Positions 9,925-51,490 are shown, counted from the stretch's first letter. The stretch is DNA of 64,000 nucleotides from an uncultured Pseudomonadota bacterium (GCA_963843375.1 CAWJKT010000010.1:1-64000); one strand, 5' to 3'. Numbers and translations are program-made. Notes: generated from the sequence alone by a model not told the origin.

Positions 9925-9938
9925 TGACACGCGTGTCA
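9925..9938. promoter_or_regulatory. Operator-like palindrome TGACACGCGTGTCA
   Basis: Perfect 14-bp palindrome between the divergent FGGY kinase and 2-hydroxyacid dehydrogenase. Confidence 0.75.
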
Positions 9939-9988
9939 TGATCCGCCATTATGGACGACGCCCGCCCCCGAAGGAGAGTTCAACCGAC

Positions 9989-10973
9989 ATGACAGGTTCC
10001 CGCCCGAAGGCTCTGGTGACGGCCGCTGTAAGCGGTCCCGGCCTCGACCTGCTGCACCAGCTGGCGGATCTCGTCCTCGATTCGTGGCTGGACCAGCCCT
10101 CTCTCCGCATCTACAACGCCGCCCAGCTGGCCGAGCGGGCGGCGGCGGAGGGCGCCAACATCGTCATCGTCGAGAGCGACGTCTGCGGCGCCGACCTCTA
10201 CGAGCAGCCCATTCTCGCCGTGTGCAGCTGCCGCGGTGATCCCACCAACGTCGACGTGGCGGCCGCGACCGCGGCCGGGGTGCCCGTGCTGCGTGCCCCG
10301 GGACGCAACGCGGACGCCGTGGCCGAGCTGGCCGTGGCCCTTCTCTTCGCCGCCACCCGCGGCGTCGTCCCGGCCGATCGCGACGTGCGGGAAGGCGAGA
10401 TCTACCGCGACGGGAAGATCCCCTACCAGCGCTACCGGGCCTGGGAGCTGGCCGGCCAGACGGTCGGCCTGGTCGGGCTCGGCGCGGTGGGGCGCGCGCT
10501 GCGCTGGCGCCTGCGCGGCCTCGGCATGGACGTCCTCGCCTACGACCCCTACGCCCCCGACGCCACCAGCTCGCTTCGACGAGCTGCTGGCCAAGTCCGA
10601 CGTGATCTCGGTGCACGCGCCGGTGACGGAGGAGACGACCGGCATGATCAACGCCGATGCGTTCGCCAAAATGCGCGACGGCGTCGTCTACCTGAACACC
10701 GCCCGGGCCAAGATCCACGACACCGACGCGCTGGTGGCCGCGCTGGCCTCGGGCAAGGTCCGCGCGGCCGGGCTGGACCACTTCGAGGGCGAGCACCTGG
10801 CGACGGACCACCCGCTGACGACGTTCCCCCAGGTCGTGCTGACGCCCCACATCGGCGGCGCCACCTACGACACCGAGTCCAACCACACGTCCATGATCGC
10901 CGAGGACCTGTGCCGGCTCATGGCCGGGGCGCGGCCGCTGCACATCGTCAACCCCGAGGTCCTTCCTTCCTGA
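9989..10973 (+). CDS. D-isomer-specific 2-hydroxyacid dehydrogenase, one frameshift
   Basis: PGRNADAVAE, GLVGLGAVG, AYDPY, LNTARA, LTPHIGG. Confidence 0.92.
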
Positions 10974-10974
10974 C

Positions 10975-11704
10975 GTGGCGGCGCGCCAGCCGACCATCAT
11001 CGCCACCTCCATCGGCTTCCTGGCCGAAGGGCCCGATCCGGCCAACCTGCGGCCGGGGCCCTCCTATCGACTGGCGGCCGAGCTGGCGCGGCGCGGGCAC
11101 GCACCCCCGCCTCTGCATCATCGCCACCGCCATGGGGGACGACTCCACCCGGCTGGCGGCCGTTCACAACGCGTTCTCCAAGCTGGGCTTCATCAGCTCG
11201 CACCTGACCCTCTTCCCGATGCCCAACGTGCCCGACGTGCGCGCCCACCTGCTGGCCCAGGACGTCATCTGGGTCGGGGGAGGCAGCACGGCCAACCTGC
11301 TGGCGCTGTGGCGGCTGCACGGGCTCGACGTCGTCCTCCGCGAATGCTGGGAGGCCGGCGTCGTCCTCAAGGGGGTCTCGGCCGGCTCGCTGTGCTGGCA
11401 CGTGGGCGGCACGACCGACTCCTTCGGCCCCACCCTGGTGCCGATCACCAACGGGCTGGCCTTCCTGCCCTACTCCAACAGCCCGCACCACGACGCCGAG
11501 GAGCAGCGCCGGCCGCTCATCCACCGCCTCATCGCCGAGGGCACGCTGCCCGACGGCTACGCCACGGAGAACGGCACCGGCCTCGTCTTCTTCGGGACCG
11601 AGCTGGTGGACGCCTTCACCGAGGTCGAGGGCAAGCTGGCCTACTCGCTCACCCGGGAAGGCGCGATGACCCGCGAGCGGGCGCTCGACACGCGGCTGCT
11701 CTGA
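10975..11704 (+). CDS. Peptidase E (family S51), frameshifted
   Basis: VIWVGGGSTANLL, GVSAG nucleophile, TTDSFG, PHHD. Confidence 0.88.
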
Positions 11705-11749
11705 CCCACCGGCTCCGCGGGACCGGCACGACTCTCGGGATCTGCCGCC

Positions 11750-15013: not shown

Positions 15014-15027
15014 TGACGATAGTGTCA
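15014..15027. promoter_or_regulatory. Operator-like site TGACGATAGTGTCA
   Basis: TGAC-N6-GTCA between the divergent ALDH and amidohydrolase. Confidence 0.68.
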
Positions 15028-15034
15028 CCTTCTC

Positions 15035-16267
15035 GTGGGAACCGTCGACACAGGGCCCGCACCGGGCCGGGCCACCCTGCTGCCCGACCCTGAGCCCAGG
15101 CCGATCCTGATGCCGGTGATCTCGGTCGACGACCACCTGATCGAGCCCCCGGACCTCTTCGAGCAGCGTCTGCCCGCCGCCCTCGCCCCGGGGGCGCCCC
15201 GCGTCGTCGAGCAAGAAGACGGGACCCAGAGCTGGGTCTTCGAGGGGAACCTCTATCCCAACGTCGGGCTCAACGCCGTCGTGGGTCGACCGCGGGCGGA
15301 GTGGAGCATGGAGCCGGCCCGCTTCGACGAAATGCGGCCCGGCTGCTTCGACATCGACGCCCGCATTCTGGACATGGACCGCGCCGGCATCTGGGCCTCG
15401 CTGTGCTTTCCTTCGCTCGTCTCGGGTTTCTGCGGTGCGGTCTACTCGCGGGCGACGGACAAGGATCTCGGGCTCGCCTGCATGCGGGCCTTCAACGATT
15501 GGCACCTCGAGGTGTGGGCGGGAACGTACCCGGATCGCATCATCCCCCTGCAGCTGCCCTGGTTGGCCGACGTGGAGGTCGCCGCGGCCGAGGTCCGGGC
15601 CAACGCAGCCCGCGGCTTCAAGGCGGTCAGCTTCCCCGAGTTCCCCGCCCAGTTGCAGCTGCCCTCCATCTTCAGCGGCCGATGGGATCCCTTCTTCGCC
15701 GCCTGCGAGGAGACCGCGACCGTCGTGTGCCTCCACACCGGCGCATCGTCGTGGGCCCCCCTCCCCTCGCCGGATCCGCCGTTCGAGCTGTTGCCCACCG
15801 TGTTCCCCGTGAACGCCCTCCTCGCCGCCGGCGAATGGCTGTGGTCCGGCGTGGCGCTCCGCTTCCCGGACCTGCAGGTCGCGCTGTCCGAGGGCGGCAT
15901 CGGCTGGGTCCCGATGCTGATGGACCGGGCCGACTACGTCCTGGGTCACTCGGCGTCGGGCAGCGAGAGCACCGCCTGGCCCTCGGACCTCCTGCCGAGC
16001 GAGGTGCTCCGGCGCAACTTCTGGTTCTGCTCCATCGACGACCCGTCCGCCGTCGCGCAGCGCCACATCATCGGCGTCGACCACATCATGGTGGAGAGCG
16101 ACTACCCGCACGCCGACTCGTCCTGGCCCGACACCCAACGGGTGCTGGCCGCGACCTGGGGCGCGCTCCCCGACGACGAGCTGCGCGCGGTGGCCGGCGG
16201 CAACGCCAGCCGTCTTTTCCGCCATCGGCTCCCATTGGTCGACGACTGGCGCAACCCGCCGCCGTGA
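15035..16267 (+). CDS. Amidohydrolase_2-family protein
   Basis: ISVDDHLIEP, AFNDW, CLHTG, SEGGIGW, ESDYPH. Confidence 0.92.
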   Translation: MGTVDTGPAPGRATLLPDPEPRPILMPVISVDDHLIEPPDLFEQRLPAALAPGAPRVVEQEDGTQSWVFEGNLYPNVGLNAVVGRPRAEWSMEPARFDEMRPGCFDIDARILDMDRAGIWASLCFPSLVSGFCGAVYSRATDKDLGLACMRAFNDWHLEVWAGTYPDRIIPLQLPWLADVEVAAAEVRANAARGFKAVSFPEFPAQLQLPSIFSGRWDPFFAACEETATVVCLHTGASSWAPLPSPDPPFELLPTVFPVNALLAAGEWLWSGVALRFPDLQVALSEGGIGWVPMLMDRADYVLGHSASGSESTAWPSDLLPSEVLRRNFWFCSIDDPSAVAQRHIIGVDHIMVESDYPHADSSWPDTQRVLAATWGALPDDELRAVAGGNASRLFRHRLPLVDDWRNPPP

Positions 16268-17752
16268 CCGGCCGCGGAGACCTTCCGCTCCCACCGCGCG
16301 CCGGCCCCGTCGTCGACGCCGACGGGCATGTCGTCGAGCCCGAGTCGGCCTGGGCGGCCCTGCCCGAGCGGTACCGGCCGCACATCACAGCCGACCGTTC
16401 GGGGTACGAACACGTGGTCGTCGGCGACACCGAGATCCTGGCCGTGCCGCTCGGCACGCTCGCCCGCCCGGGTTCGACGTTCGACGACCCCGCCGCCTTC
16501 CGGCCCCTGGCCGACGCCATGCCGGGCGGATCGGACCCGAGTGGCCCGCCTGCGCGACATGGACAGCGAGGGCATCGACCAGGCGGTGTTGTTCCCGACC
16601 ATCGGGCTGTACTTCTCGGTGGTGGAGGACCCGGCGGCGGCGGTCGCCCTGGCCGCCGCCTACAACGACTGGCTGGCGCAGTACTGCGCCGCCGATCCCC
16701 GCCGGCTCTTCGGAGCGGCCATGCTCCCGCTGCAGGACCCGGCGGCGGCGGCACGCGAGCTGCGGCGCGCCGTCACCGAGCTCGGCCTCGTGGCCGGATT
16801 CGTCCGCCCCAACCCCTGCCTGGGACGCGCCCTGTCCGACCGCGCCTACGACGTGGTGTGGGACGCGGCCGAGGAGCTCGGCGTGCCCATCGGCATCCAC
16901 GAGGGCAGCTCGGTCATCGTGCCGACGCTCGGGGCGGACCGCCCGTTCAACCCGCTGCTCCTGCACGCCGTGTCCCATGCGTTCGAGGCGATGCTCGCCT
17001 GCGCCGAGCTCATCGCATTCGGCATGCTGGAGCGCCACCCCGGCCTGCGCCTCCTCTTCTTGGAGTCCTCCGGGGGCTGGGCCCCGTTCTGGCTCGAGCG
17101 CCTGGACGAGCAGGCGGAATCCTTCGGCGGCTTCTGCCCGGACATGGCGCTGCGCCCGTCGGAGTACTTCGCCCGCCAGTGCGCCATCAGCTTCGAGGTC
17201 GACGAGCGCACCCTGCCCGCGCTGGCGCCCTTCGTCGGCGAGGACCGCATCGTCTGGGGCAGCGACTACCCGCATCACGACGCCACGTTCCCCGGGGCGG
17301 TCGACGCCATCCGCGCCACCGTGGCCCCCTGCCCCACCGCGGCGCAGGTGCACGTGCTCGGGCTCAACGCCCGGCGGCTCTACTGGCTCCCGTCGCGGCG
17401 TGCCGGGCTGCCCGGCCTCATCGACGACTACTTCACCGCCGTCACGGCGCAGGAGATCGACCTCGTGCGCGCGCTGTTCACGCCCGACGCCGTCTTCGAG
17501 AGCGGCGACGTCCGGCTGCAGGGCCTCGACGCCATCTGCGGGTACTACACCGACCACACCTTCGCCTTCGAGGACTTCCGGCCCGCTCCCGGGACTCCGA
17601 CCTTCGACGGCACGCGGGTCCAGGTGGACATCGACGTCCACCTGGGCGGGGCCCAGAGCTCGGTGCGCGACGTCTTCGAGACGGACGGCACGCGCATCAC
17701 GGCGCTCCGCGTCCGCGGGTTCGCCGACGCGCTGCGCGCCGCCGCGCGCTGA
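16264..17752 (+). CDS. Amidohydrolase_2 protein fused to a C-terminal SnoaL/NTF2-like domain
   Basis: DADGHVVEP, YNDW, IHEG, GSDYPH; in-frame tail IDDYFTAV..LFTPDAVF..GLDAI..DVF; one frameshift near 16540. Confidence 0.85.
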
Positions 17753-25410: not shown

Positions 25411-25424
25411 TGACGCTGCTGTCA
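25411..25424. promoter_or_regulatory. Operator-like site TGACGCTGCTGTCA
   Basis: TGAC-N6-GTCA (flanked C..G) about 35 bp upstream of the subunit-3/GMC operon. Confidence 0.62.
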
Positions 25425-28185: not shown

Positions 28186-28199
28186 TGACATCGGCGTCA
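28186..28199. promoter_or_regulatory. Operator-like site TGACATCGGCGTCA
   Basis: TGAC-N6-GTCA between the divergent ACAD and CoA ligase. Confidence 0.7.
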
Positions 28200-31657: not shown

Positions 31658-31671
31658 TGACACGGGTGTCA
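31658..31671. promoter_or_regulatory. Operator-like palindrome TGACACGGGTGTCA
   Basis: 6-bp perfect arms, located in the 70-bp gap between divergent ACAD genes. Confidence 0.75.
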
Positions 31672-31703
31672 CCTCGCGCGGCGGCTGTGCCATGCTGCGG
31701 CCG

Positions 31704-35965: not shown

Positions 35966-37328
35966 TCAGGAGGCGAATCGGATGGTGACTGCCTTGGTAT
36001 CAGCCGGATTGGTCGAACTGGCGTTGTTCACCACGACGTAGCAGCTGTGTGCCGCGTCGCACACACCGTTGCCGATCGGTGCCGGTGCCGATGTGGAGGA
36101 GCACCGAGCCCGATCCCGTGGGGTCGGGATGCAGAATCGCCGCGTGGGCGAAGCTGCAGCCGGCTGAGCTGGCCGTCGAGATCTCCACCGTGGAGCACTC
36201 GAGGATGTTGACCACCTTGCCCGCGGTGTAGCCACTCCACCGAACGGTGACAGCCTGGCCGTCGCGGAGGCCGGTGTCGGGACTGACGGTGGCGTGGAGG
36301 TGGACCGCTGCGGCCTTGGGAAGGGGCAACGCGGCGCGCGATCCCTCAGCCCAGGCGGTGTGCACCGTCGACTGGGACGTCCGACCGTCGGTTGCCACGG
36401 CCTGCAGCGCTCCGTGCTGATGCTTGAGGTAGGCGTCGAAGAAGGCCGTCGTCGACGCAATGACTGCTCCCGAGGTCGGTCCGACCACCCCCGAGGCGGC
36501 CATGTGGGCAACCGACCCAGTCGTGTCTGAGCGAGCGTCCCAACTGAGCGCGAGCAACGCCTTGGGCCCACGCGCCTGGTTGAAGACGGCGACAGCATCG
36601 CCGTACGGAATGAGCCCATCGTGGAGATCCTGGACGATGAGCAGCGGCGGTGCCTCGGCCATGTCGTAATCGGCCGCTGCCCAGACCCTCGGTGGTGCCG
36701 GCCATGACGACCGCTGCCTTGACCCTGGTGTCACGGCAGCAGCTGTTCGCAATCAGGCCCAGCGTCGTGATGGCGCCGTTGGAATGGCCTGCGGCCCCGA
36801 TCTCGTTCGGGTCGATCAGGCCCGACAACGGCCCGTTCGGGGTGCTGTCGGCCTTGAGCACCTCGTCTATGACGAAGCTCATGTCACCGGGCTGGTTCCC
36901 GATGTCCCCGGCGTCGGCGCCGCCAGGCGTCTCACTGCTCGACAATGGGAACAACGGGAGCAGCCACCACGTAGCCCGCGGCCGCCCAGGCGGTCAGCAG
37001 TTTGCTGTACCCCTGGGGCGAACCCCCCAGCCCGTGGGCAAAGACGATCAGCGGGTAGGGAGCCTGACCCGACGTGTCTGGCCGATCCCGACCGCGCCGG
37101 ATACCAGATGGTCGTGACGAGCGTTCGGGATGGCCGTGCCGGCATGCCGTCCCAGGGCGGGGTGGACCTCGAGGTGTCGACGAAGGTCATCGTCATCTTC
37201 GCCACGGGCGCCGAGCTGGTTGCTCCGACGGCCTGCGTCGGCGCGGCGACTCCCGCCAAGGCGGTGGCGGGCAGGAGCAGGCCACAGGCAACTGCACCCA
37301 ACAGCGCCGTCCGCTGTATCGGCCTCAT
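35966..37328 (-). CDS. Secreted alpha/beta hydrolase with C-terminal neocarzinostatin-apoprotein-like domain, frameshifted
   Basis: Signal peptide, TFVDTSR..RTLVTTIWYP, NQPGD, GHSNG; C-terminal TVSPDTGLRDGQAVTVRWSG..LEC..C..C..C. Confidence 0.78.
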
Positions 37329-37559
37329 CCCCTTCTCCCTCCCAGACGAGACGCCATCGTGCCACAAGCACTGCTTCGTCTCTCGGCCCGTCCCCTGGGG
37401 AGTTCAAGCCCTGTAGAAGCAGCTCTTGTACCAGCCGGGTGCGGGATCGCCGAGGAATGGCGGCGGGCAGATCAGGACGCCGTCGTAGCTGACGCCGGCG
37501 AGACCAAGTGTGCGTGTGGTGGCACAGCGGGACATCGCTGCGCCGGTCCTCCCCTACCG

Positions 37560-39051: not shown

Positions 39052-39409
39052 GCTGGGATCCCCCTCTTCGACTGCTCGACGATGGAGTCAGTATCGGAAG
39101 GAATCCGGGCGCGGCGAATAGGACTTTTTGACTAAATATGAACTATTCCCGCAGGTCCAAGCCCTGTGGGCCTCGCCCACACACGTATTGGATCCGGCGC
39201 CGTCGCAACCGGGTCATCCGCTCCCTGCGACCCCCGTGCCGTGCTCAGAAATCCACGCACGCGGCAACCCGTGCAACCGGTCGGCGACGCCGTGGCAATC
39301 ACGACCACAACGGCGGTGGCGGTGACAACGGGGGCGCAATTGACGCACCCGAAATGCAACCCGGTCGTCGGTGATCAGCCCGAGGCGATGAGGCGCTCGA
39401 GCCGGCCCC

Positions 39410-40670
39410 TCAGCCCCGGGGAAGGCCGAGCACACGCTCGGCCACGATGTTGCGCTGGATCTCCGACGTCCCGCCGGCGATGGTGCCGGAGAAGGAACGC
39501 AGGTACTGCAGGGCCAACGCGCCGTCGTAGAACGAGCCGATCGCGCTCTCGCTCCGACCGGGCCGGCTCGAAGTGGGCGAGGTCCCACTCGGTGAAGCGG
39601 TTCGGGCCCGGGCCGTCGAGGTCGAGGCCCTCGAGGCCCAGCGCCTCCTGAGCCAGCAGGCAGGCCCGCTGCTCGGCCTCGCTGGTGAACAGCTTCAGCA
39701 CCATGTGCTCGGGCGACATCTCGCCCCGGGTCGCCTTGGCGAAGCCGCGGTAGCCGAGGCAGCGCATGGCCGCCGTGTCGGTGGCCAGCCGGCCGATGGC
39801 CTCGGCGAGGCGCGGGTCGTCGCCCAGGGTCCCGCCGCGGCCGTCGGGGCGCTGGGCCATGCGCACCAGTCCCTTCAGCGTGCGCTCCATCTTCGACACG
39901 TTCATGATCCAGAGCATGCCCCGCTCGTGGCGCAGCGAGCCCTGGCTCACCGCCCAGCCGTGGTTGCGCTCCCCCAGCAGGTTCTCCTCCGGCACCTCCA
40001 CGTCAGTGAAGAAGACCTCGTTGAAGTCGGCGTGGTGCGGGTCGGTCAGCTCGGGCAGCGGCCGGCAGGTGATGCCCGGCGTGCGCATGTCGATGATGAG
40101 CACGCTGATGCCGCGGTGCTTCGGCGCCTCGGGGTCGGTCCGCACGTAACACATGCAGTAGTCGGCCTCGTGGGCGCCCGACGTCCACACCTTCTGCCCG
40201 TTCACCACGAAGAGGCCGTCGCGCTCCTCGGCCCGCGTGGTCAGCGAGGCCAGGTCGCTCCCCGCGTTGGGCTCGCTCATGCCGAGGCACCACGTGATCT
40301 CGCCCTTCAGCGTCGGGAGGACGAAGCGCTCCTTCTGATCGTCGGTGCCGTACTCGACGATGGAGGCGGCACAGATGGAGAGGCCCTGCGGGTTGAGCGA
40401 ACGCGGCGCCATGCGCTCGGTGATGACCTCGAAGTAGGCCATCTGCTCTTTCGGGGTGGCGTTGCGGCCGCCCAGCTCGGGCGGCCACCCCGGCACGAGG
40501 TAGCCCGCCTCGAACAGCTCGCGCTGGAAGGTGCGGGCCCACTCCGGCAGGTGCGCCGAGGAACGGCGCTGCTCGTCGGCCATCGCCTCGGGTGCGGGCA
40601 GGTGCTCGTCCAGCCATGCTTCGAACTCGCGGCGGAACGCAGTCAGCGAGTCGTCAGGGGCGAGGCGCAT
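39410..40670 (-). CDS. Acyl-CoA dehydrogenase (catalytic-type), frameshift near C-terminus
   Basis: WCLGMSEPNAGSDLAS, GQKVWTS, FNEVFF, LRHERG, TIAGGTSEIQRN..VLGLP. Confidence 0.93.
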
Positions 40671-40679
40671 GGCCAACTA

Positions 40680-40693
40680 TGACACGGGCGTCA
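40680..40693. promoter_or_regulatory. Operator-like site TGACACGGGCGTCA
   Basis: About 10 bp upstream of the ACAD ATG, overlapping the upstream gene's stop codon. Confidence 0.68.
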
Positions 40694-41110
40694 TTCGGCC
40701 AGCGAGTCGCCGTCGTCCTCTTCCTGCGCGCTCGCCGAGCCCTGCTTGTAGCCGCGCCGGGCGGACGGCCACGCCTGAATGGCGAGCGCGATCCCGAAGG
40801 CCGGCTCGGTGAGGAGGATCGACCCGGCGATCTCGTCCCAGGTGGCGCCGACCTCGGCGGCCAGCCGGGCATGGCGCTGCACGCCGCCGGGCTGGCGGGC
40901 GATGACGGTGCACACCATGCGGATCAGCTCGTGCGTCTTGCGGTCGGGCGCGCGCAGCGAGTCGATGGAGGCCATCCATGCGTTCTGGGCCTGCAGGACG
41001 CCCGGGGCCCACTCGTGCAGGAAGCGCTCCGACGGAAAGGGCCACACGTCCTCCTGGACGTTGATGTCGAAGGCCTCGTCGGGTTCGCCTGGCGTCATGG
41101 CGTCGGTCAT
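40691..41110 (-). CDS. Carboxymuconolactone decarboxylase/AhpD-like protein
   Basis: DRKTHELI..RHARLA..GATWDEI motif; no CxxC. Confidence 0.75.
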   Translation of the reverse strand: MTDAMTPGEPDEAFDINVQEDVWPFPSERFLHEWAPGVLQAQNAWMASIDSLRAPDRKTHELIRMVCTVIARQPGGVQRHARLAAEVGATWDEIAGSILLTEPAFGIALAIQAWPSARRGYKQGSASAQEEDDGDSLAE

Positions 41111-41120
41111 CGTACCGGCC

Positions 41121-43388
41121 TCAGGAGCCGGGCTCGGGGTCGCGGGGCTGGCCGAGGATGCGCTCCGCGATCACGTTGCGCTGCACCTCGCTCGTGCCGC
41201 CGGCGATGGTGAGGCAGCGGGTGGAGAGGAAGCCCTCCTCCCAGCGCTGCGCCTTGCCGTCGAGCACCGCGCCGTCGGCGCCGTAGAGCGCCATCCCCAT
41301 CTCCTGCACACGCTGCTCGTGCTCCACGCCGAGCAGCTTGCGCACGCTGGTCCCGCTGCCGGGATCCACGCCCGAGAGCGTGCGCAGCGTGGAGCGGTGG
41401 CCGAGCAGGGCGATCGACTGCGCCTCGGCGATCAGGTGCCCCAGCCGCTCCTCCATGCTGGGCGGGCTCGGCTCGCCGCGCTCGCTCCGGCGCGCCACGG
41501 TCCGGATCAGCGACTCGACGCCGTGGCCGAAGGAGGCGCCCGACGACATGGAGACGCGCTCGTTGGCCAGCGTCGTCCGCCCGATGCGCCAGCCGTCCCC
41601 CGGCGCGCCGACCACGGCGTCGTCGGGGACGAAGACGTCGTTGAAGAAGACCTCGTTGAACATGGCGGCGCCGGTCAGCTCGCGCAGCGGCCGGATGTCG
41701 ATGCCCTCGGCGTGCATGTCGACGATGAAGTAGGTGATGCCGGCGTGCTTGGCCGCGTCGGGGTCCGAGCGGGCCAGGCAGATGCCGAAGTCGGCCATCT
41801 GGGCCAGCGACGTCCACACCTTCTGCCCGTTGAGGACCCAGCCGCCCTCGACGCGTTCGGCCCTGGTGCTCAGGGCGGCGAGGTCGGACCCCGCGCCGGG
41901 CTCGCTGAAGAGCTGGCACCAGTTGAGCCGGCCGTGCAGCGTCGGGCGCACCCAGCGCTCCTGCTGCTCCGCGGTGCCGTGCGCGATGAGCGTCGGCAGC
42001 GCCCACGCCCCGACCGCCAGGTGGGGGCGCGGGACGCCGGCGGCGGCCAGCTCCTCGTCGATGACGAGCTGCTCGAGGGGCGAGGCGCCCCGGCCCCACG
42101 GCGCGGGCCAGTGCGGCATGATCAGCCCCGCCTCGGCGATGGCGGCGCGCCGGTCGGCCTCCCCCGCCGCGGCGACCTCCGCCACGACCGCGCGGATCTC
42201 CTCGCGCAGCGACTCCGCCTCGGGCGGCAGGTCGGCGGCCAGGTTGCGCCGGGACCCGGCGATGGCCAGCGCGGCCACCTCGTGCTCGAGCGCGCCGACG
42301 TCGCCGCCGGCGACCAGCTGCAGGTTGGCCATGGCCCGCTTCAGGTAGAGGTGGGCGTCGTGCTCCCAGGTGAAGCCGATGCCGCCGAGAAGCTGAATGC
42401 ACTCCTTGGCGCAGTGCGCGGCCGCCCCGAGCGCCACGGCGCCGGCGATGCGCGCGCTGAGGTGGCGGTCCCGGGTCTCGTCGTCCGCACCGCTGTCGGC
42501 GTCATCCTCGCTCCAGGCGGCCGCGGCGTCCCAGGCCACCGCGGCGGACTGCTCGACCGCGACCAGCATGTCGGCCAGCGCGTGCTTGACCGCCTGGAAC
42601 TGGCCGATGGGCCGGCCGAACTGGACGCGCACCTTGGCGTACTCCGACGCCGTCTGCAGGCACCAGCGGGCGATCCCCGCGCTCTCGGCCGCGGCCAGCG
42701 TCAGGGCCAGGCCGCGCACGTCGTCGTCGGACACCATGACCTGCTCGTGCCGCGGCACCGTGACCCCGCCGCCGGCGATGGTCAGCTGCCCGACGGCGCG
42801 GGTGCCGTCGAGCGCCGGGAGCGCCTCGACGGAGACGGCGTCGCCGAGGGCCTCCCGGTCGAGCAGGAGCCAGCCGGTGCCGGTGCCGTAGTCGAGCGGC
42901 ACGAGGACCAGGCGGGCGGTGGGCAGCCCGAGCACCGGGCGCACCGTGCCCGCGAGGGAGAGCGCCCCGTCCTGCGCCGGCTGCCAGGGGTGGGCCGCCG
43001 CGCCCAGCGCCACCGCCGCCGTGATGGAGCCGTCGGCCAGGCCGCGGAGCCACTCCGGCGGCACGGCCGCCGGCCCGCGGGGCACGCGGGCCAGGGCGGC
43101 GGAGACCAGCACCGTCGGCAGCAGCGGTCCGGGGAAGAGGGCGTGACCGAGCTCCTCGAGCACGACGGCCAGCTCGGCCAGCGTGAAGCCCTGGCCGCCG
43201 TGCTCCTCGGGCAGGTGGAGGCCGAGCCACCCCTGGGCCGCCATCTTCTCCCAGGCGGCGGGCAGCTCCGCCGATCCGGGCGGGGCCTCGGCCACCTGCC
43301 GCGGCACCGCGGGCGGGCAGTGCGTCTGGGCCCAGCGCAGCGCGGTGGCGCGCAGGGACTCGTGGTCCTCGGTGACGGCGATCGGCAT
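41121..43388 (-). CDS. Two-domain (fused) acyl-CoA dehydrogenase, FadE34/FadE22-like
   Basis: N-half QFGRPIGQFQAVKH..GGIGFTWEHDAH; C-half WCQLFSEPGAGSDL..LANER..TIAGGTSEVQRN; about 755 aa. Confidence 0.93.
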   Translation of the reverse strand: MPIAVTEDHESLRATALRWAQTHCPPAVPRQVAEAPPGSAELPAAWEKMAAQGWLGLHLPEEHGGQGFTLAELAVVLEELGHALFPGPLLPTVLVSAALARVPRGPAAVPPEWLRGLADGSITAAVALGAAAHPWQPAQDGALSLAGTVRPVLGLPTARLVLVPLDYGTGTGWLLLDREALGDAVSVEALPALDGTRAVGQLTIAGGGVTVPRHEQVMVSDDDVRGLALTLAAAESAGIARWCLQTASEYAKVRVQFGRPIGQFQAVKHALADMLVAVEQSAAVAWDAAAAWSEDDADSGADDETRDRHLSARIAGAVALGAAAHCAKECIQLLGGIGFTWEHDAHLYLKRAMANLQLVAGGDVGALEHEVAALAIAGSRRNLAADLPPEAESLREEIRAVVAEVAAAGEADRRAAIAEAGLIMPHWPAPWGRGASPLEQLVIDEELAAAGVPRPHLAVGAWALPTLIAHGTAEQQERWVRPTLHGRLNWCQLFSEPGAGSDLAALSTRAERVEGGWVLNGQKVWTSLAQMADFGICLARSDPDAAKHAGITYFIVDMHAEGIDIRPLRELTGAAMFNEVFFNDVFVPDDAVVGAPGDGWRIGRTTLANERVSMSSGASFGHGVESLIRTVARRSERGEPSPPSMEERLGHLIAEAQSIALLGHRSTLRTLSGVDPGSGTSVRKLLGVEHEQRVQEMGMALYGADGAVLDGKAQRWEEGFLSTRCLTIAGGTSEVQRNVIAERILGQPRDPEPGS

Positions 43389-43636
43389 TACGTACTCTCC
43401 TCGAGCGGGACCTCGGCGCCGTCGCGCCAGAGGGAGATGGCGCCGACCGGGCAGCCCTGCGCCGCGGTGCGGAGCCGCTCCTCGTCGGTGGCCGCGGCAT
43501 CCACGACGACGGCGTGGCCGTCGTCGCTCAGGTCGAAGGTCTCGGGGGCCCAGAAGACGCAGTTGCCCGACCCCATGCAGCGGTCCCAGTCGACCCGCAC
43601 GTCGAGCGGCCGCGGCTCGGCCGCGTCGTCCGCCAT
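43388..43636 (-). CDS. [3Fe-4S]-type ferredoxin
   Basis: VDWDRCMGSGNC..APETF..CPVGAI. Confidence 0.92.
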   Translation of the reverse strand: MADDAAEPRPLDVRVDWDRCMGSGNCVFWAPETFDLSDDGHAVVVDAAATDEERLRTAAQGCPVGAISLWRDGAEVPLEEST

Positions 43637-43717
43637 CAGGCCGACCCCGGCACGACGCCGCTCTCGATGGCCGCTGCGTCCTGCAGCGGGTTGGCTCTGC
43701 CGCCCATGTGCCTGAAA

Positions 43718-44965
43718 CTACCCCCCGGGGGTGAACACCACCGGCAGGGACAGCGGCGAGCGGAAGGCCATCCCCTCGATGTGCGGCGGTTCGGCATCGG
43801 GGTCCAACGTGAAGGGCCCCAGGCGGTCGAGGAGGGTGTTGATGGCGACGCGCGACTCCATGCGGGCGAGATGCATGCCCAGGCAGACATGGACGCCGAA
43901 GCCGAAGCCCACGTGCTGGCGCTGCTCGCGGAACATGTCGTAGCGGTCGGGCTCGGGGTACTTGCGCTCGTCGCGGTTGGCCGCGCCGATCAGGAGGGCG
44001 ATATCGGCCCCGCTCTCGATCTGCACGCCGGCCAGCTCCGTCTCGCGGGTGGCCCGGCGCAGGATCACGCACACCGGCGGCTCCCAGCGCACGACCTCCT
44101 CGAAGGCCTGGGCGAACAGCGAGCGGTCGTTGTAGAGCGCGTCGAACTGCGTCCGGTCGTGCAGCAGCGCGAAGAGCAGGCTGCCCGAGGCGCGGTAGGT
44201 CGTCTCCACCCCGGCCGGCAGGATCAGGCGGAGGAACGAGAAGATCTCCTCGTCGGTGAGGTGCCGGCCCTCGACCTCGGTCCGCACCAGTTCGCTGATG
44301 AGGTCGTCGCCGGGGTGGGCCCGGCGCTCCTCCATGACGTCGGCGAAGTAGTCGCGCAGCGCGTTCGACGCCGCGATGCCGCGCTCCCAGTTGGCGGCGA
44401 CACTCGTGAGCTCCAGCGCCCAGCGCTGGAACTTCGGGTAGTCCTCCCGCGGCAGCCCGAGGATGCGGGCGATCACCTGCACGGGGAAGTTGAAGGTCAC
44501 CGAGCGCACGAGGTCGGTGCGGCCCTCGTCGATGAAGGTGTCGATCAGCTCGTTGACGACGAGGGCGACCAGATCCTCTTCCCAGCGCTCCAGCATCTTG
44601 GAGCGGAAGCTCGATGCGACGAGGGTGCGGATGCTGCGGTGCTCGGGCTCGTCCATCTGCAGGATGGTGCGGCCCATCACCATGCCCATCACTTCCTCGT
44701 AGATGGTCGAGGAGTACGTGTCGTTGTCGCGCAGCACCTGGACGACCTCGTCGTAGCCGAACACGGTGACGGGCGCCGGCTTGGTGGGGTCGGCGATCTC
44801 GGCGCCCTCGCCGAGGTCGATCGGGCCGGAGTGCACCGGGCTGATGCGACGCAGCGCCTGCATCGCGGGGTACGGGTCGCGGATGGTGCCGCCGACCACG
44901 TCTTTCAGCTCGTAGGGATCGAAGGGGACAGCCGCAGAATCAGCCGTCGAATTTAGGCCTGGCAT
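43718..44965 (-). CDS. Cytochrome P450
   Basis: AGVETT (I-helix), EVVR (ExxR), FGFGVHVCLG heme-binding motif. Confidence 0.97.
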   Translation of the reverse strand: MPGLNSTADSAAVPFDPYELKDVVGGTIRDPYPAMQALRRISPVHSGPIDLGEGAEIADPTKPAPVTVFGYDEVVQVLRDNDTYSSTIYEEVMGMVMGRTILQMDEPEHRSIRTLVASSFRSKMLERWEEDLVALVVNELIDTFIDEGRTDLVRSVTFNFPVQVIARILGLPREDYPKFQRWALELTSVAANWERGIAASNALRDYFADVMEERRAHPGDDLISELVRTEVEGRHLTDEEIFSFLRLILPAGVETTYRASGSLLFALLHDRTQFDALYNDRSLFAQAFEEVVRWEPPVCVILRRATRETELAGVQIESGADIALLIGAANRDERKYPEPDRYDMFREQRQHVGFGFGVHVCLGMHLARMESRVAINTLLDRLGPFTLDPDAEPPHIEGMAFRSPLSLPVVFTPGG

Positions 44966-45014
44966 GTCTTTCGCGCAACCCCCTAGATTCCGGGTGTCAC
45001 ACAGGGGTCGGACC

Positions 45015-45028
45015 TGACTCCCCTGTCA
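45015..45028. promoter_or_regulatory. Operator-like site TGACTCCCCTGTCA
   Basis: TGAC-N6-GTCA about 50 bp upstream of P450. Confidence 0.55.
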
Positions 45029-45035
45029 TGTATAG

Positions 45036-45049
45036 CAAACGATCGTTGG
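45036..45049. promoter_or_regulatory. Second palindrome CAAACGATCGTTGG, candidate operator for the local TetR
   Basis: Perfect core AACGATCGTT (45038-45047) in the P450/TetR divergent region. Confidence 0.5.
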
Positions 45050-45229
45050 GGAGTCCACGAACAGGGGTTCCCGGCGCACACGGTGACGCTCTGGTTTGTG
45101 CCGGATCCGACCCGGACAAGGTAAGACGAGCGAGCAAGGGCGGGAGGCCACACGCCAGCGAGGGGACTCATCGGGCAGCGTTTCGTCGTCCCGAGGTCGG
45201 AGAGCGGAGAATGGGACCGAAGATGAGCG

Positions 45230-45878
45230 TTGGCACGCCCCCCAAGGGTGACACGCACGCGCGAGCGAGGAGCAGCCGGCCCCGGAGAGGGGTCGGCGAC
45301 TCGGCGCCGGATCCTGCAGATCGCCCTCACCCTGATGGCCCAGCGCGGCGTCGACGGGACCAGCATGCGGGACCTGGCCTCGGCCGCCGGCCTCAACGTG
45401 GCCTCGCTGTACCACTACTTCCCGAGCAAGCGGACCTCCTGGAGTCGGTGCTCATCGAGCAGGGGTTCCTCCCGATCAGGCCGGCGCACGTCGACCCCGC
45501 AGGGCGAGAGCCCTGCCACCGAGCCCCTGACGCTGGCCCAGCTCCTGGCCGAGATCATGACCTCCATGTTCGAGGTCGAGGACTTCGTCCGCCTGATGGT
45601 CGGCGAGGCGATGCGCGGCGAGGAGACCGCCCGCGCCGTGGGTGTGGACCTCTTCGCCTCGTTCGAGTCGAGCATCGAGGACTGGGTGAAGAACAACCGT
45701 CCCGACCTCAGCGAGCGGGCCGGGCGCCGCCGCGGTGGCCCGCCTCCTCAGCGCCATGGTGGTCGGGATCTTCATCCAGCACGCCGCCGATGTGCTCGGT
45801 GAGGAGGGGGATGACCTCACCGCCCTGTCCCTCGACCGGGCCCGCGAGGCGGCCTCCATCCTCCGGCCGCCGGGTTAA
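45230..45878 (+). CDS. TetR/AcrR-family regulator, frameshifted
   Basis: TRRRILQIALTLMAQRGVDGTSMRDLASAAGLNVASLYHYFPSK HTH. Confidence 0.92.
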
Positions 45879-47603
45879 GAGGCGGGCGACTCCTCGCCCT
45901 CGGGTCCCGGCATCGCATCCGAGGTCCGGGATCCGCACCACGGAAGTCGGCGTGCACCGGAGGGCGGTCGAGCGCGAAGATCCGCCGGCACGGCCCATCC
46001 GGCCAGGGTGTGGATGTCCTTCCCCAGGTCCGGCCGGCCCGTCCACCCAGTCGTCGATGCCGGCCGTCACCCAGGCGACGGCGTCGTGGTCCCAGGTCCC
46101 GTACAACTTGGACTCGGTGATGCAGAGGGGCACGAACTCGCCGCCCAACACCAGCTCCCACACGGCCAGGGCCACACCCGGGTTGTGCGGGGTGGAGATG
46201 TTCCCGAAGGCCACCAGGCCGCCCGGCCCGAGCAGCGTGCGCGCCGTGGCCACGTCCTGGCGCACGACGTCGTAGCGGTGGCCGCCGTCCACGTGGACGA
46301 TCCGGCACGTGCCCGCCCGCTCCTCCGCATCGATCCCCCCCGACGGTCCGACGATGACGTCGGGCGGCTGCTCGTGGAAGCGCTCGTACTCCTGGAGGAA
46401 CCCCTTCTCGCTCACGTCGGCGTACCAGTGGTTGATGATCATGAGGCTCTCGGGGTCGAGCGCCTGCTTGTGCTCGAACACGTCGCACACCGTGAGGCGC
46501 TCGTCGGGCGGGCGGGCCAGATAGCCCAACAGGATGGCGCTCTTGCCGAACGAGGTGCCGATCTCGAAGAGGTCGCCGCGCCCGCCGTGCCCGCGCTGCA
46601 GCCGGTCGAGTTCGACCAGAACGCGGGCGTCGAGGGGGGAGAACCACCCGGGCACCGTGTCCAGGGCGAGGAGGTACGCCGCGCTGCGGGCTCCAGGTCG
46701 TCGGTCGCGTTGGTTGCCTCCGCATCCGTCGTCCGCACCTGCGGTGCGACCGCCTCGACCACGTCCTTGAGCCGGTCGTCATGGACGAGCTCGTGGCGTT
46801 TCCCGCCGACGGTGATGGCACCGTCCTCGTAGCTCAGCGCCTCCCATTCGCGGTCGAGCGTGCCCTCGCGGGCCATCTGCCACCAGCGCTTGAGATGCCA
46901 GGCGGCCTCCGCCGATGACCGCTCTTCGATCGAACGTCTCCCGTGGTCGAGCTTCTGCACCAGCAACGAGCGCGCCCGCAGCGGCGCGTGGAGGCAGGTC
47001 AGCGCGTCCGTGGAGACACCACCCGCGATGCCGGAGAGATGATTGCCGGCCCCGACGAAGACACCCGGGACGGCGCGGTGGACGACCTTGGGGGCGTACG
47101 GCAATTCCAGCCAGCTGACTGCGCCCGTCTGTACCAGGCGAGAGGCCTCTTCGGCCGTTCCGACGACGCGCGTCCGGGCGCATGGTCATGGTGGCCACGA
47201 CACCGGGATGCGCCGCCAGCACGTCGCGCCGCTGCACGAAGTTGATCACGTCCACGAACAGCGCCCGGGCGTCGACCGGCGCCTCTTCCAGGACGGACCG
47301 GAACGGCGCGTCCAGCGCGACCCAGAACTCGTCGGCGTCAATCGGGAGGACCCAATCCGCTCCCTGCTGCGCCGCGAAGCGGGCCATCCGCGTCACCCGG
47401 CCGGACTGGTACACGTGCCCGGTCTCGCTCGCCAGCTGCAGGGGCAGCTCGCCGGCCAGCTCCACCAGGAGCTCGAACGTCCCGTCGGTGGAGCCGTTGT
47501 CGACGACGATGGCCTCGTCGAGAACCGTCGTGAGGTGGTGGCGCAGATTGGTCTCAATGATGTCCACCTCGTTGCGGACCAGGTAGAGACCGACGACCTT
47601 CAC
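45875..47603 (-). CDS. GT2-family glycosyltransferase apparently fused to a class I SAM methyltransferase (Methyltransf_24-like), frameshifted
   Basis: VRNEVDII, VDNGSTDGT, PIDADEFW; C-terminal VPGWF, GDLFEIG..GKSAI, VHVDGGH. Confidence 0.75.
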
Positions 47604-47679
47604 GGAGCGAGTGTAGGGCGCTCCCCCCCGGCTCACTTGCCCGCGCCGGCCGGCCCGGCACACACTGGCGCCGTGCCCG

Positions 47680-48170
47680 ATGCCACCCCCGATCGCCACC
47701 CCGACCGCCGTTGCCACCGCCGTCTTCTCGGTGCCGGCCGAGACCGTGTGGGCCTACCGCCTCGACTTCGCCAACCTTCCGGAGTACAACCCCGACGTGC
47801 AGGACGTGACGCGCGTGGCCGACGGGACCGGCGACGCGGCGGGTGGCGTGCACGGGCCCGGCGCCCGTTACACGTTCGGCTTGGCCGACCCGCGCCGGCC
47901 CGGCGTGTATCAACCGATTGAGTTGTGGACCGTGGAGGCCGTCGCCCCGACGCTCGTGGCCGCCGGGATGTCGGGTGGGAGCGAGGCCTACGAGGAGTTC
48001 GTCGTGGAGCCCCTCGGCGACGGCGGGTGCGAAGCCACGCTCACGCTGTGGGTCACCCTGCCCGAAGGCCTCCCCGAGGACGTGGTCGCCGCTGCCGCGG
48101 CCGGCAGCCTGGACTCCATCAGCAAAGAGCTTCGCCTGATGAAGCAGGTGCTCGACGGCGCTCTGACTGA
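47680..48170 (+). CDS. SRPBCC-family protein (3' end approximate)
   Basis: VPAETVWAYRLDFANLPEYNP..GARY..VEPLGDGG..LRLMKQVLD. Confidence 0.78.
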
Positions 48171-48178
48171 CCGCGCGC

Positions 48179-48610
48179 CTAGTGGCTGTAGTGCGCGTCC
48201 GCGTCGGCGAGACGCTCGGCCAGTCGGGCCAGCATCTTCACGCCGATTCTCGGCGTCGTCATCAACATCGACCTGAACTCACGGGCGTCGAGGACCAGCA
48301 ACTCCATGTCCGTCTCTGCGACCACGTCCGCCGTGCGGATCCCACCGTGGAGGAGTGCCAGTTCGCCGAAGTACCCCCCGGTCGTGAACTCCGCGATCTC
48401 ACGCTTCCCCACGCGGCACGAGGCGATGCCGGAGAGCACGAGGAAGAACTCCCGGCCGACGGAGCCCTGGGCGGTCAGGAGCTCGCCGCTCTCGACACTG
48501 ACGGGGGTGCCGAGCTGCGCAATGGATCGGAGGTCGCTCTGCGAGCACCCCGAGAAGAGCGGGACCGCCTTCAACAGATCGATCTGCTGCTTCGGGATTC
48601 GATGCCGCAT
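48179..48610 (-). CDS. Stand-alone cyclic nucleotide-binding domain protein
   Basis: LKAVPLFSG, GREFFLVLSG, YFGELALL..RTADVVA; no HTH. Confidence 0.88.
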   Translation of the reverse strand: MRHRIPKQQIDLLKAVPLFSGCSQSDLRSIAQLGTPVSVESGELLTAQGSVGREFFLVLSGIASCRVGKREIAEFTTGGYFGELALLHGGIRTADVVAETDMELLVLDAREFRSMLMTTPRIGVKMLARLAERLADADAHYSH

Positions 48611-48714
48611 GTGGCCACCTGTACTGGGCTGGAACTGCTTGGAAACGCCAGTTGGAGCGTACCTCCCCCATCCCCCGAGCGCAGGGTCTTTCGGCAGGCG
48701 GCGCCTCTGGGCGC

Positions 48715-50344
48715 TCACCCGCCTTCCCGCAGGCGCTGGCGCAGCACGAACTTCTGGATCTTCCCCGAGGGCGTCCGCGGCAGCTCGTCGACGATGCGGA
48801 TCTCCTCGGGCCACTTCTGGCGGGTCAGCCCGGCCTCCTGGAGGTGCGCCCGCAGGGCCTCGAGGTCGGGCGGCGCGCTCCCCGGCTGCATGCGGAAGAA
48901 CGCGCAACCGTGCTCGCCGAGCCGTTCGTCGGGCGCCGCCACCACCGCCACCTCGGCCACGCCCTTCATGTGGGCCAGGAGCTGCTCGACCTCGGCCGCG
49001 CTCACGTTCTCGCCGCCGCGGATGATGATGTCCTTCACCCGGTCCGTGATGGTGAGGTAGCCGTCCGCGTCGATCACGCCGATGTCGCCGGTGCTGAACC
49101 AGCCGTCGGCGTCGACCGCCTCCGCCGTCAGCGCGAGGTCCGTGTAGCCCGCAAAGCGGTCCGGCCCCCGGCTCAGGATCTCGCCGGGCTGGCCCACCTC
49201 GACGTCGCGACCGTCCTCGTCGACGGTGCGGATCTCGACCCAGGCCATCGGCCGGCCGTCGGTGTGGATGCGCTTCTCCTTGGGGGCGTCGTGCTGGGAA
49301 CCCGTGATGGAGGGGTGCTCGGTCGACCCGTACGAGCGCACCAGCGAAATCCCGAGCGCGTCCGCCCGCTCCGCCACCGCGTTGGGGATGGGCGAGCCGC
49401 CGAGCCCGACGAACCGCATGAGCTCCACGTGCTCGGGGCCGAAGCCGGGGCTGTCGAGCAGGCTCGTGAAGAAGAACGTGGAGCCGCTCCCGGCGGCGAT
49501 GTGCTCCTCGACCATGGCGTCGAGGACGGTGGGCGGGTCCCAGCCGTCGATCATGTAGATGGGTCGCCCGCTGTAGAGGGGGCAGAGCAGCCCACCGAGC
49601 ATGCCGATGGCATGGCCGACCGGAGCACCCACGAGGCTCGGCAGATCGCGCATGGCCTGGTGATCGGACGAGCTGGCGCACCTCGCAGCCCAGGGTGCGG
49701 TGCGTGTGCACGACGCCCTTGGGGTCGGCCGTCGTGCCCGAGGTGTAGCCGATGACCGCCGCGCCGTCGGGGTCGACGTGCGCCGGGCCGTCGATCGGCT
49801 CCGCCTGGCGCAGGTCGTCGAAGCGAACGTACCCGGACGCGTCGCCGGCGATGTCGCCCACCACCACGACCGTGCTCGAGGCTCTCGCAGCCCGTCGCGC
49901 ACCGTGGCCAGGTCGGCCAGGTAGTCGCGCTGACCGATGCTCGACACGATCACCAGCGCACGGGCGCCGCTCTGGCGGAGGATGAAGCCCAGCTCCTTGG
50001 GGCCGTAGAAGTGCACGATCGGCACCAACGTCACACCGAGCATGCTGCAGGCGTAGAAGGTGATGGCCGCGTCGACCCAGTTGGGCAACTGGAAGGCCAC
50101 CACGTCGCCGGGCCCGAGGCCGAGCGCGCGCAAGCCGCCCGCCACGCGCAGCGACTCCTCGTAGACCTCGCCGACGGTGCCCGAGGTACGGGTGCGTCGG
50201 CGACCAAATGCGGAAGCGCCGCGTCGGGTCCTCCAGGAGGGCGTCGCGCAGGAACTCCCCGAGCGTGCGGTCGTCCCAGGCGCCCTCGGCCAGGTAGCGC
50301 TCGGCCAGCTCGGGCGGCACGGGGCGCAGCTCGAAGGTGGTCAT
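48715..50344 (-). CDS. Acyl-CoA synthetase (AMP-binding, FadK/cyclohexanecarboxylate ligase-like), frameshifted
   Basis: FQLPNW, YTSGTTADPKG, YGSTE, GWFSTGD, DRVKDIIIRGGEN, PSGKIQK. Confidence 0.93.
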
Positions 50345-51438
50345 GCCGATTCGATGAAGAGCGTCGCCAGCCGGTGGCGCTGGGCTGCCGGCGCCGCCCG
50401 CGAGGAGCTCGTTCTGCTTCACCCGCTTGAAGAGGAAATGGGCGTCGTTGGCCCAGGTGAACCCGACGCCGCCGTGCAGCTGAATGTCGTCGCCGGTGAC
50501 CCGCACACCGGCGTCCGCCGCGTAGCTCGAGGCCATGGCCGCGGCCTGTTCCCGCTCGGGCGACTCCGTGTCCGAGGCCCAGGCCGCGAACTGGAAGCCG
50601 GCCCGCGCCATCTCGACCTGCTGGAACATCTCGACGAGCCGGTGACGCACCGTCTGGTAGGTGGCGACCGGCTTGTCGAAGACGATCCGCTCCGACGTGT
50701 AGGCGATGGCCTCGGTCAGGGCCCGGTGCGCCGCGCCGACGGTCTCCGCCGCCAACCCGACGGCGATGTCGTCCTGCACCCGCTGCCACAGGCCCAGCTG
50801 GTTGCCCGACGGGCCCAGCGGAATGACCGGCGTGTCGTCGAGCACGAGCCGGGCCAGCTTGCGCGTGGGGTCGAGCGACGGGACCAAGGTCGCCCTCGGG
50901 CGACTCGAGGAGATACGACCGCACCCCCTCCTCGCTGCGGGCCACCACGATGACCCAGTCCGCCGTGTGCCCGTCGACCACGACCGGCTTCTCGCCGCTG
51001 ACGACCCACTGGGCCGCCTTCCGGCGCGCCCGCGTCCGCACCGTCGAGACGGGGTCGCCGTGGCCCTGCTCCCCCAGCGCCACCGTCCCCCGGCGGGTGC
51101 CGGCGGCCAGGTCGGCCAGCAGCTCGCTCGCGCCCAGGGCACGCGCGGCAAGGGTGGCCGCCACGGAGGAGGAGAAGAAGGGGCCGGGCAGCGGGAATGC
51201 GACCCATCTCTTCGAGGACGACGCACATTTCGAGCAGGCCGGCCCCGCTGCCGCCGTACTCGTCGGGCACCAGCAGGCCGGTCCATCCGAGCTCCACCAG
51301 CGTGGACCACAGCGCCGGAGTGATGCCGTCGGCCTCCTCGGCCAGTTGGCGCACCACGTCAGGCCCGCACTCGCGCTCCAGCGCGCTGCGGGCGACCTCC
51401 TGCAGTGCGAGCTGCTCGTCGTCGTACGTGAAGTCCAC
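50341..51438 (-). CDS. Acyl-CoA dehydrogenase (partner-type subunit), frameshifted
   Basis: DFTYDDEQ, RIVFDKPVATYQTVRH, QLHGGVGFTWANDAHFLFKR. Confidence 0.9.
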
Positions 51439-51476
51439 GGCCTCCCCTACGTCTCGCTCACCGACGCGCCATTCCC

Positions 51477-51490
51477 TGACACCGGCGTCA
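51477..51490. promoter_or_regulatory. Operator-like site TGACACCGGCGTCA
   Basis: Located between divergent ACAD genes. Confidence 0.72.

Follow-up and report, generated by a model that had tools for sequence, protein, structure and literature searches.

What ties the apparently unrelated genes of a catabolic cluster together, and which regulator acts on them? This question is raised by a stretch of 64,000 nucleotides (hereafter the window) filed under an uncultured Pseudomonadota bacterium (GCA_963843375.1, CAWJKT010000010.1:1-64000), in which a first-pass annotation had marked eight copies of the palindrome TGAC-N6-GTCA and had ascribed them to one dimeric, probably TetR-like regulator, possibly encoded elsewhere. 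Our comparative analysis argues with good probability that the palindrome serves as operator for a single subfamily of TetR-family repressors in Acidimicrobiia, whose recognition helix reads S-H-G-T-F-Y-L-Y-F; both the conservation of the sites and their co-occurrence with the TetR gene support a single regulator of this kind encoded outside the window. The literature within reach, which did not extend to RegPrecise, subscription papers and the image-only logos of PMC4482099, yielded no description of the motif or the regulon for actinobacteria: The TetR regulon is apparently undescribed, while the repressor-operator logic itself is ordinary. In the following, G000 denotes the assembly containing the window, G001 a relative with a complete single-contig chromosome, and other G numbers further genomes; the genes of the window were defined by frame scoring and by comparison with their G001 orthologues.

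Predicted Operator Sites in the Window

The window was matched against TGACNNNNNNGTCA, and the chance level was taken from 100 dinucleotide shuffles of the window. This yielded nine matches against a shuffle mean of 0.87 and a maximum of 4, a count of nine being reached in 0/100 shuffles. A spacer of 6 is thereby singled out, as every remaining spacer in the range 0–15 gives 0–3 matches. The eight 14-mers marked before were recovered with their coordinates and letters (Table 1); six lie between divergent genes, and the gaps to the start codons measure 5–50 nt for all eight, which agrees with the earlier description on both counts. The earlier estimate of 0.3 chance hits was too low, but the conclusion that the sites are not due to chance stands. 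Likewise, the proposed consensus TGACACnnGYGTCA renders the palindrome correctly and is slightly too narrow: 256 distinct sites from all fetched loci, preselected with a matrix that was itself derived from sites of this kind, give cTGAC(A/G)CSSG(T/C)GTCAg. The ninth match, which the first-pass annotation had overlooked and for which one homologous locus was available for comparison, has a matrix score of 14 versus 19.5–25 for the eight and is probably a chance match.

Predicted −10 hexamers (TANNNT) at the 256 sites share their last base with the first of the site, immediately precede the site or lie 2–19 nt downstream, and their offsets cluster at −5, −12, +16/17, +24 and +32/33, with orthologous promoters entering this distribution as non-independent cases. 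In the predicted promoters the site thus covers the −10 element, the start, the spacer or the −35 element, varying from promoter to promoter, and such varied overlap of core promoter elements fits a repressor site.

Table 1. Features of the window, with positions counted from its first nucleotide; gaps are those between a predicted operator and the neighboring start codons.
Feature	Position	Strand	Genes concerned	Remarks
Predicted operator	9925..9938		FGGY kinase (−, ATG 9919) / 2-hydroxyacid dehydrogenase (+, ATG 9989)	gaps 5 and 50 nt
Predicted operator	15014..15027		aldehyde dehydrogenase (−, ATG 14986) / two Amidohydro_2/ARO-type genes (+)	gaps 27 and ~7 nt, right start uncertain
Predicted operator	25411..25424		before gluconate-2-dehydrogenase-subunit-3-like gene and GMC oxidoreductase (−, ATG 25375)	gap 35 nt
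Predicted operator	28186..28199		acyl-coenzyme A (CoA) dehydrogenase (−, GTG 28163) / CoA ligase (+, GTG 28231)	gaps 22 and 31 nt
Predicted operator	31658..31671		two acyl-CoA dehydrogenases (GTG 31633, −; ATG 31692, +)	gaps 24 and 20 nt
Predicted operator	40680..40693		before acyl-CoA dehydrogenase (−, ATG 40670)	gap 9 nt; overlaps stop codon of preceding gene
Predicted operator	45015..45028		cytochrome P450 promoter (−, ATG 44965)	gap 49 nt; begins on last base of −10 element
Predicted operator	51477..51490		two acyl-CoA dehydrogenases (GTG 51438, −; GTG 51521, +)	gaps 38 and 30 nt; + gene cut at junction
Ninth match	36720..36733			within coding frame
Second palindrome, AACGnnCGTTT type	45036..45049		upstream of P450 −10 element	single copy in window
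Local TetR gene	45290..45878	+	divergent from P450	PF00440; frameshifted, start uncertain
Cytochrome P450	43718..44965	−	followed by ferredoxin and double acyl-CoA dehydrogenase
Amidohydro_2 protein, DitZ-like	15035..16267	+		ARO motifs D-D-H and D-Y-P-H-A-D
Second Amidohydro_2 protein, PtmU3-like	16268..17752	+		frameshifted, SnoaL fusion; ARO motifs D-G-H and D-Y-P-H-H-D; structure match via G001 orthologue
Junction of Acidimicrobiaceae DNA and 50%-GC host genome	51676..51680		cuts acyl-CoA dehydrogenase after 52 codons	G001 alignment ends at 51676

Conservation of the Sites

The sites would lose their significance if they were not conserved upstream of orthologous genes, or if they were equally frequent in coding DNA. 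Neither is the case. At the P450 promoter the exact site is kept in 65/79 loci, and in these 79 loci (1.48 Mb) a spacer of 6 gives 204 matches versus 3–35 at other spacers. For the other promoters, with rows lacking upstream sequence skipped, the exact site precedes the orthologues of 51477 in 46/46 cases, those of 31658 in 19/21 and those of 40680 in 37/54; it is found in 4/6 cases for 28186 (lost in G001), 7/17 for 25411, 8/12 rows for 9925, with one genome entered twice, and 6/17 orthologues yet 0/8 paralogues for 15014. In the clusters of G001 and G003 together, 41 of 43 sites are intergenic at a coding fraction of 85%, both according to our own gene calls. Whole-genome site counts of 94, 98 and 108 stand against 27, 25 and 10 in a reversed control.

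In G001, 15 of 46 stricter matches fall inside a 132-kb cluster that is collinear with the window and extends beyond it, and additional promoter sites precede a second P450, a third Amidohydro_2 gene and a lactate-racemase-like/FGGY operon. A further operator (L097:3043) belongs to an operon region 3.6 Mb from the cluster, which comprises genes for an FGGY kinase, a LarA-family racemase and an MFS-ABC fusion. A NiFe-hydrogenase-like gene set, judged by eye from translations, is seemingly inserted in the middle of the cluster (L092:17073 to L093:10886) and has no operator sites.

The Candidate Regulator

Candidates for the regulator were sought by crossing TetR genes with site positions. In both G001 and the more distant G003, a TetR gene with a site upstream lies inside the cluster, and both proteins have the helix SHGTFYLYF. 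The candidate is a single unit of ~210–260 aa with an N-terminal PF00440 helix-turn-helix; in G001 (C1:4025833-4026465) its gene is located 33 kb past the point at which the window is cut. Across 201 Acidimicrobiia genomes, in which strand-hits were counted with TGACRYNNGTGTCA, at least three strand-hits occur in 51/51 TetR-positive genomes (median 9) versus 15/150 TetR-negative ones (median 0). A family survey of 41 genomes gives medians of 10.5 hits with the TetR and 2 without. Among the family genomes that have orthologues of window genes, a hand tally finds the site kept in 8/11 with the TetR versus 0/8 without (p 0.003), or 1/8 without if one weak exact match is counted (p 0.02); because the genomes are related, these p-values overstate the co-occurrence.

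As regards autoregulation by the same motif, a site stands upstream of the TetR gene at 13/30 class loci, comprising 12 of paralogue A and the long-branch copy of G001, and at 4/11 family loci. Most class genomes with the TetR hold two paralogues of identical helix, A with an upstream site and B without. In a tree of 33 rows, from which four near-duplicate loci had been dropped, A falls on one side with a support of 88/80 and B with 99/93, while the long branches are unsure. Paralogue B (L110-L136) and a CoA ligase are transcribed divergently, and the very short spacer between them contains a conserved ATCGTACAAG element. At the phylum level, a site precedes 3/8 homologues with the helix SHGAFYLYF, 2/7 with SHGTFYTYF and 0/8 with GHGTFYAYF. 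The best 120 of 1667 homologues of the candidate are close relatives only, none of them named. By profile and fold, the nearest structures are EthR, FasR and the Bacillus-type FadR, which at ~20% identity differ from the candidate in lacking orthology; entries of FasR and FadR include acyl-CoA complexes, and the likeness in fold gives a weak hint at a hydrophobic or acyl-CoA ligand.

Several observations weigh against the assignment of the sites to this TetR. An upstream site is missing at 17/30 class loci (paralogue B) and at 7/11 family loci; G483 and G516 carry the TetR but few sites, none of them at the genes tested; and G081, G492, G032 and G496 have 7–17 matches with no cognate TetR found. 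In the two of these that were inspected, G081 and G492, the sites are scattered over DNA of 57–60% GC (guanine plus cytosine) outside such a cluster. Moreover, co-occurrence with the sites would be seen for any gene that accompanies the cluster, and many of the surveyed genomes are incomplete. As regards G081 (L285-L294), a 58%-GC genome, its about a dozen TGAC-N6-GTCA sites are possibly those of another regulon.

Other Regulators and a Probable Second Operator at the P450 Gene

The TetR gene closest at hand is the one that diverges from the P450 gene and thereby shares an intergenic region with site 45015. However, a comparison of the P450 loci, two short ones being dropped, shows that this local TetR is accompanied by the AACGnnCGTTT palindrome, which occurs at 63/64 loci with the gene and 0/13 without, whereas the TGAC site is present at 54/64 and 9/13, respectively (p 0.24). 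G003, furthermore, has many TGAC sites and no such local TetR at its P450, so that we regard a role of the local TetR as regulator of the TGAC sites as very improbable. The palindrome at 45036 is, from this comparison, its likely operator: Since the second palindrome tracks the local TetR and the TGAC site is independent of it, the P450 promoter appears to have two operators. An equally slight chance is left to a diverged KstR orthologue as the protein that binds the TGAC site. The KstR and TGAC 14-mers differ at positions 4 and 11 only, KstR-like proteins (at most 157 bits versus a cut-off of 280) occur in 5/5 cluster genomes, and the gene content resembles sterol side-chain enzymes. Yet a KstR-like protein persists in 4/5 genomes that lost the sites, and the KstR-like loci examined have no TGAC site upstream, one having a canonical KstR box instead. 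Motifs for KstR and KstR2 of mycobacteria and rhodococci are given in the accessible parts of PMC1995591 and PMC3068626. The KstR operator TnnAACnnGTTnnA has 0 matches in window positions 1-51676 and in 140 kb of the G001 cluster, as has the KstR2 operator AnCAAGnnCTTGnT in the window and the G001 cluster; the candidate TetR gives no match to the KstR model at an E-value of 1e-5 and stays far below all curated cut-offs. The distinction from KstR and KstR2 drawn by the first-pass annotation is thereby upheld. As far as the accessible parts of these sources describe them, the two regulons have in common with ours a TetR repressor, a candidate in our case, a 14-bp palindrome in short divergent promoters, possibly autoregulation, and genes for acyl-CoA dehydrogenases, CoA ligases, ChsH2/Ltp2-type proteins and F420-dependent proteins of the Rv3520c family; they differ in the operator, in a regulator that here falls outside the KstR model, and in the sterol equivalogs, which here remain below cut-off.

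A different kind of protein is suggested by the letters themselves: The shape TGACA-N4-TGTCA is also that of the boxes of CopR/CusR (in the accessible part of PMC12428095) and of the sequence upstream of GraR targets (likewise PMC3128592), so that a response regulator of the OmpR family, or a member of some other family, might activate the promoters. CopR, CusR and GraR, however, belong to Proteobacteria and Firmicutes and have metal or envelope targets, and no two-component or copper genes occur among the cluster proteins scanned, which represent part of the genes. Also, the offsets at which the sites here coincide with −10 elements and transcription starts vary, and we deem activation by such a regulator improbable. 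It is barely credible, lastly, that the sites arose by chance or act as promoter elements without a regulator: The half-site TGACA does resemble a −35 hexamer and stands at the −35 position in some promoters, but the strict spacer, the symmetry, the intergenic bias and the loss of sites together with the TetR speak against it.

In some relatives the pair of AACGnnCGTTT palindrome and local TetR is duplicated, and a further copy occurs in G001 (L091:1824). Moreover, a lone half-site TGACAC on the P450 strand (window 44993-45001), ~15 nt downstream of site 45015, is conserved in many orthologues and may be a weak auxiliary site.

Origin of the DNA

The organism name under which the window is filed does not apply to the cluster. 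Positions 1 to ~51,700 have a GC content of 64–76%, whereas the rest of the window has ~50%, as has most of assembly G000; all operator sites are inside the block of ~71% GC, which ends abruptly at 51676. Window positions 46-51676 are collinear with the G001 chromosome from 3,940,184 to 3,992,856 over 52 kb that include tRNAs, at 82–92% identity in the main blocks, and the best matches of the P450 come from soil Acidimicrobiaceae with up to 95% identity. Twenty relatives of G000, in turn, match the window strongly only from 51678 onward. On the host side of the junction, positions 51676-51760 open within a short repeat of which G000 and its kin contain several copies. A GC content of 60–78% recurs at ends of contigs C1, C3, C4, C23 and C27 in this 50%-GC assembly, whose stated contamination is 4%; each of these ends contains at most one exact site, and none matches the cluster. 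Frameshifts affect about 20 of the 34 window genes compared with G001 (a printed tally of 21 includes one paralogue match).

We take the contig to be chimeric, assembled from long reads at low depth, with DNA of two organisms probably joined by misassembly. A true genomic island was considered and rejected, as a gene is cut in mid-frame, the block lies at a contig end, and the collinearity with the chromosome of the relative includes the tRNAs; that the kin of G000 match from 51678 only and that other contigs have similar high-GC ends disfavors it further. Because the chimeric contig is cut 33 kb short of the TetR gene, the regulator is not found in its own assembly: A tblastn search of G000 gave no match to the candidate TetR at an E-value of 1e-5. 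RNA runs cover small shares only (0.05–0.12); contigs of relatives span 38000-52000 but hardly anything past 52028, and such coverage is evidence neither for expression nor for promoter use.

Gene Content and Likely Substrate

According to Pfam, the cluster encodes several acyl-CoA dehydrogenases, most of them in pairs or fusions, two CoA ligases, an enoyl-CoA hydratase, a CoA transferase III, a ChsH2-type/thiolase-like pair, a P450 with ferredoxin, an F420 oxidoreductase, an aldehyde dehydrogenase, a GMC oxidoreductase with small subunit, an FGGY kinase and four amidohydrolase-fold proteins. In the plus-strand operon starting at 31692, the acyl-CoA dehydrogenase is followed by the enoyl-CoA hydratase and the CoA transferase III; at site 25411, G001 has a divergent hydantoinase gene that is absent in the window. 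On the minus strand of window 36000-37400, a frameshifted gene that is absent from the G001 cluster encodes a neocarzinostatin-family domain, fused behind what is probably a hydrolase domain.

The amidohydrolase-fold proteins had been taken as a sign of a conjugated (glycosylated or amidated) substrate, which our analysis does not support. According to the accessible part of PMC13154177, the motifs D-x-H and D-x-P-H-x-D/E on PF04909 define amidohydrolase-related dinuclear oxygenases (ARO) and are absent from the characterized hydrolases of the fold; DitZ is described there as a diterpenoid hydroxylase. The proteins at 15035 and 16268 both have PF04909, the N-terminal D-x-H and the C-terminal D-x-P-H-x-D/E, and the former also agrees with the diiron class in its hydrophilic and non-aromatic residues. 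Their best solved matches are DitZ and PtmU3 (E-values of 8.6e-76, 7e-47 and 2.4e-101), with which they share fold and motifs as far as PMC13154177 and the accessible part of PMC10811679 describe them, while being only moderately identical. By these motifs, the pair behind site 15014 more likely consists of C-H hydroxylases than of hydrolases, which weakens the argument from amidohydrolases for a conjugate. Since the ARO family is large, with up to 11 close paralogues per genome (8 in G482 and 11 in G515 at E < 1e-100), the substrate of DitZ or PtmU3 cannot be carried over. The numbers in G482 and G515 indicate that putative dinuclear oxygenases have multiplied greatly in Acidimicrobiaceae. 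In 41 kb each, the ARO neighborhoods of Nonomuraea and Rhodococcus WAY2 contain one exact site and none, respectively, and no cognate TetR. The two further amidohydrolase-fold proteins are Amidohydro_3 members and may be true deacylases.

A steroid- or terpenoid-like substrate had also been proposed. The nearest structures are 4X28 and 6WY8/9 for a dehydrogenase and 6OK1 for a thiolase-like protein of G001, all of which we take to be sterol side-chain enzymes. None of the sterol-specific equivalogs Ipd, Cas, FadD3 and EchA19 reaches its cut-off, IpdE2 giving 136 versus 450 bits and FadD3 at most 297 versus 657 bits. The KshA C-terminal domain (KshA_C) is found 0 times in G001 and G002 and is present in G003, G484 and G490; an HsaC-type dioxygenase has 0 matches in G001, G484 and G490. 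As G001 has neither a KshA C-terminal domain nor an HsaC-type match, a sterol substrate degraded by the standard ring-opening route is doubtful; a terpenoid-like one is conceivable. On the evidence of the gene content, a pathway that oxidizes a branched or cyclic lipid acid and shortens it in a CoA-dependent manner is somewhat to be preferred over conjugate hydrolysis, whereas a terpenoid in particular is a tentative choice that we would not favor. Genes for a sugar kinase, a 2-hydroxyacid dehydrogenase, an aldolase II and hydantoinase-like proteins share the operator and are not accounted for by this reading. The Amidohydro_3 pair, the FGGY kinase and, in relatives, the hydantoinase pair may allow an amide- or sugar-linked branch.

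From the sites, their conservation, their overlap with promoters and their co-occurrence with the TetR gene, we infer binding, repression, a ligand and a substrate as follows: In many short and frequently divergent promoters, including that of its own gene, the TetR dimer would occupy the 14-bp palindrome and thus core promoter elements, thereby holding the 130-kb cluster and a few distant loci off. The releasing ligand would be a metabolite of the pathway, with an acyl-CoA or a bulky lipid acid as the most likely candidates. The derepressed genes would then import the substrate, a branched or cyclic lipid acid, and oxidize it by P450/ferredoxin, dinuclear oxygenases, the F420 oxidoreductase and the GMC protein, followed by CoA-activation and β-oxidation via the paired acyl-CoA dehydrogenases and ChsH2/Ltp2-type pairs. 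At the P450 promoter, the local TetR and its own palindrome would provide a second lock.

Double-TetR Relatives

Fused double-TetR forms of the regulator were found only in G057 and in plasmid relatives, longer proteins not having been searched systematically. G057, one exception among the TetR-negative genomes with 21 matches, has two such relatives (L137/L138 and L139/L140), and each fusion, like a third TetR, is preceded by a site. Double-TetR homologues are also encoded among similar genes on plasmids of Streptomyces and Rhodococcus (L142:11284-12615; L143:11296-12624); the matrix matches on these are lopsided, a single half-site being perfect, and 4/4 and 4/7 of them lie between annotated genes, as judged from incomplete gene tables. 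Mce3R of Mycobacterium tuberculosis is a weak sequence match that has the same double-TetR architecture. According to the accessible part of PMC11667970 it differs in its 25-bp non-palindromic sites, whereas the main regulator here is single-domain with a palindromic site; the native probe published there contains, by eye, no TGAC-N6-GTCA.

A joint reading of these findings, which we hold to be rather unlikely as a whole, would be an undescribed route in a quarter of the sampled Acidimicrobiia: Plant or microbial terpenoid acids (diterpenoid- or hopanoid-like) would be degraded without recourse to the standard sterol ring enzymes, by DitZ/PtmU3-type diiron oxygenases, P450s and CoA enzymes resembling those of sterol side chains, and the TetR paralogues A and B with their identical helices would form a heterodimer, an unfused forerunner of Mce3R-like double TetRs with lopsided operators.

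Meaning of the Regulon

The idea of one pathway under one regulator retains its core: The conserved sites mark a real regulon of acyl-CoA dehydrogenases, CoA ligases, P450, GMC oxidoreductase and others, while the conjugated substrate is not retained. In practical terms, the high-GC block is foreign to the genome under which it is filed. Soil is rich in Acidimicrobiia, most of which are uncultured, and no substrate has been assigned to their large clusters of acyl-CoA dehydrogenase, "amidohydrolase" and P450 genes. The conserved operator and the candidate repressor mark which genes belong together and, via the TetR ligand, offer a handle on the substrate; the regulon also puts uncharacterized dinuclear oxygenases into a catabolic context. 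The double-TetR version present in cultured Rhodococcus and Streptomyces strains is genetically testable.

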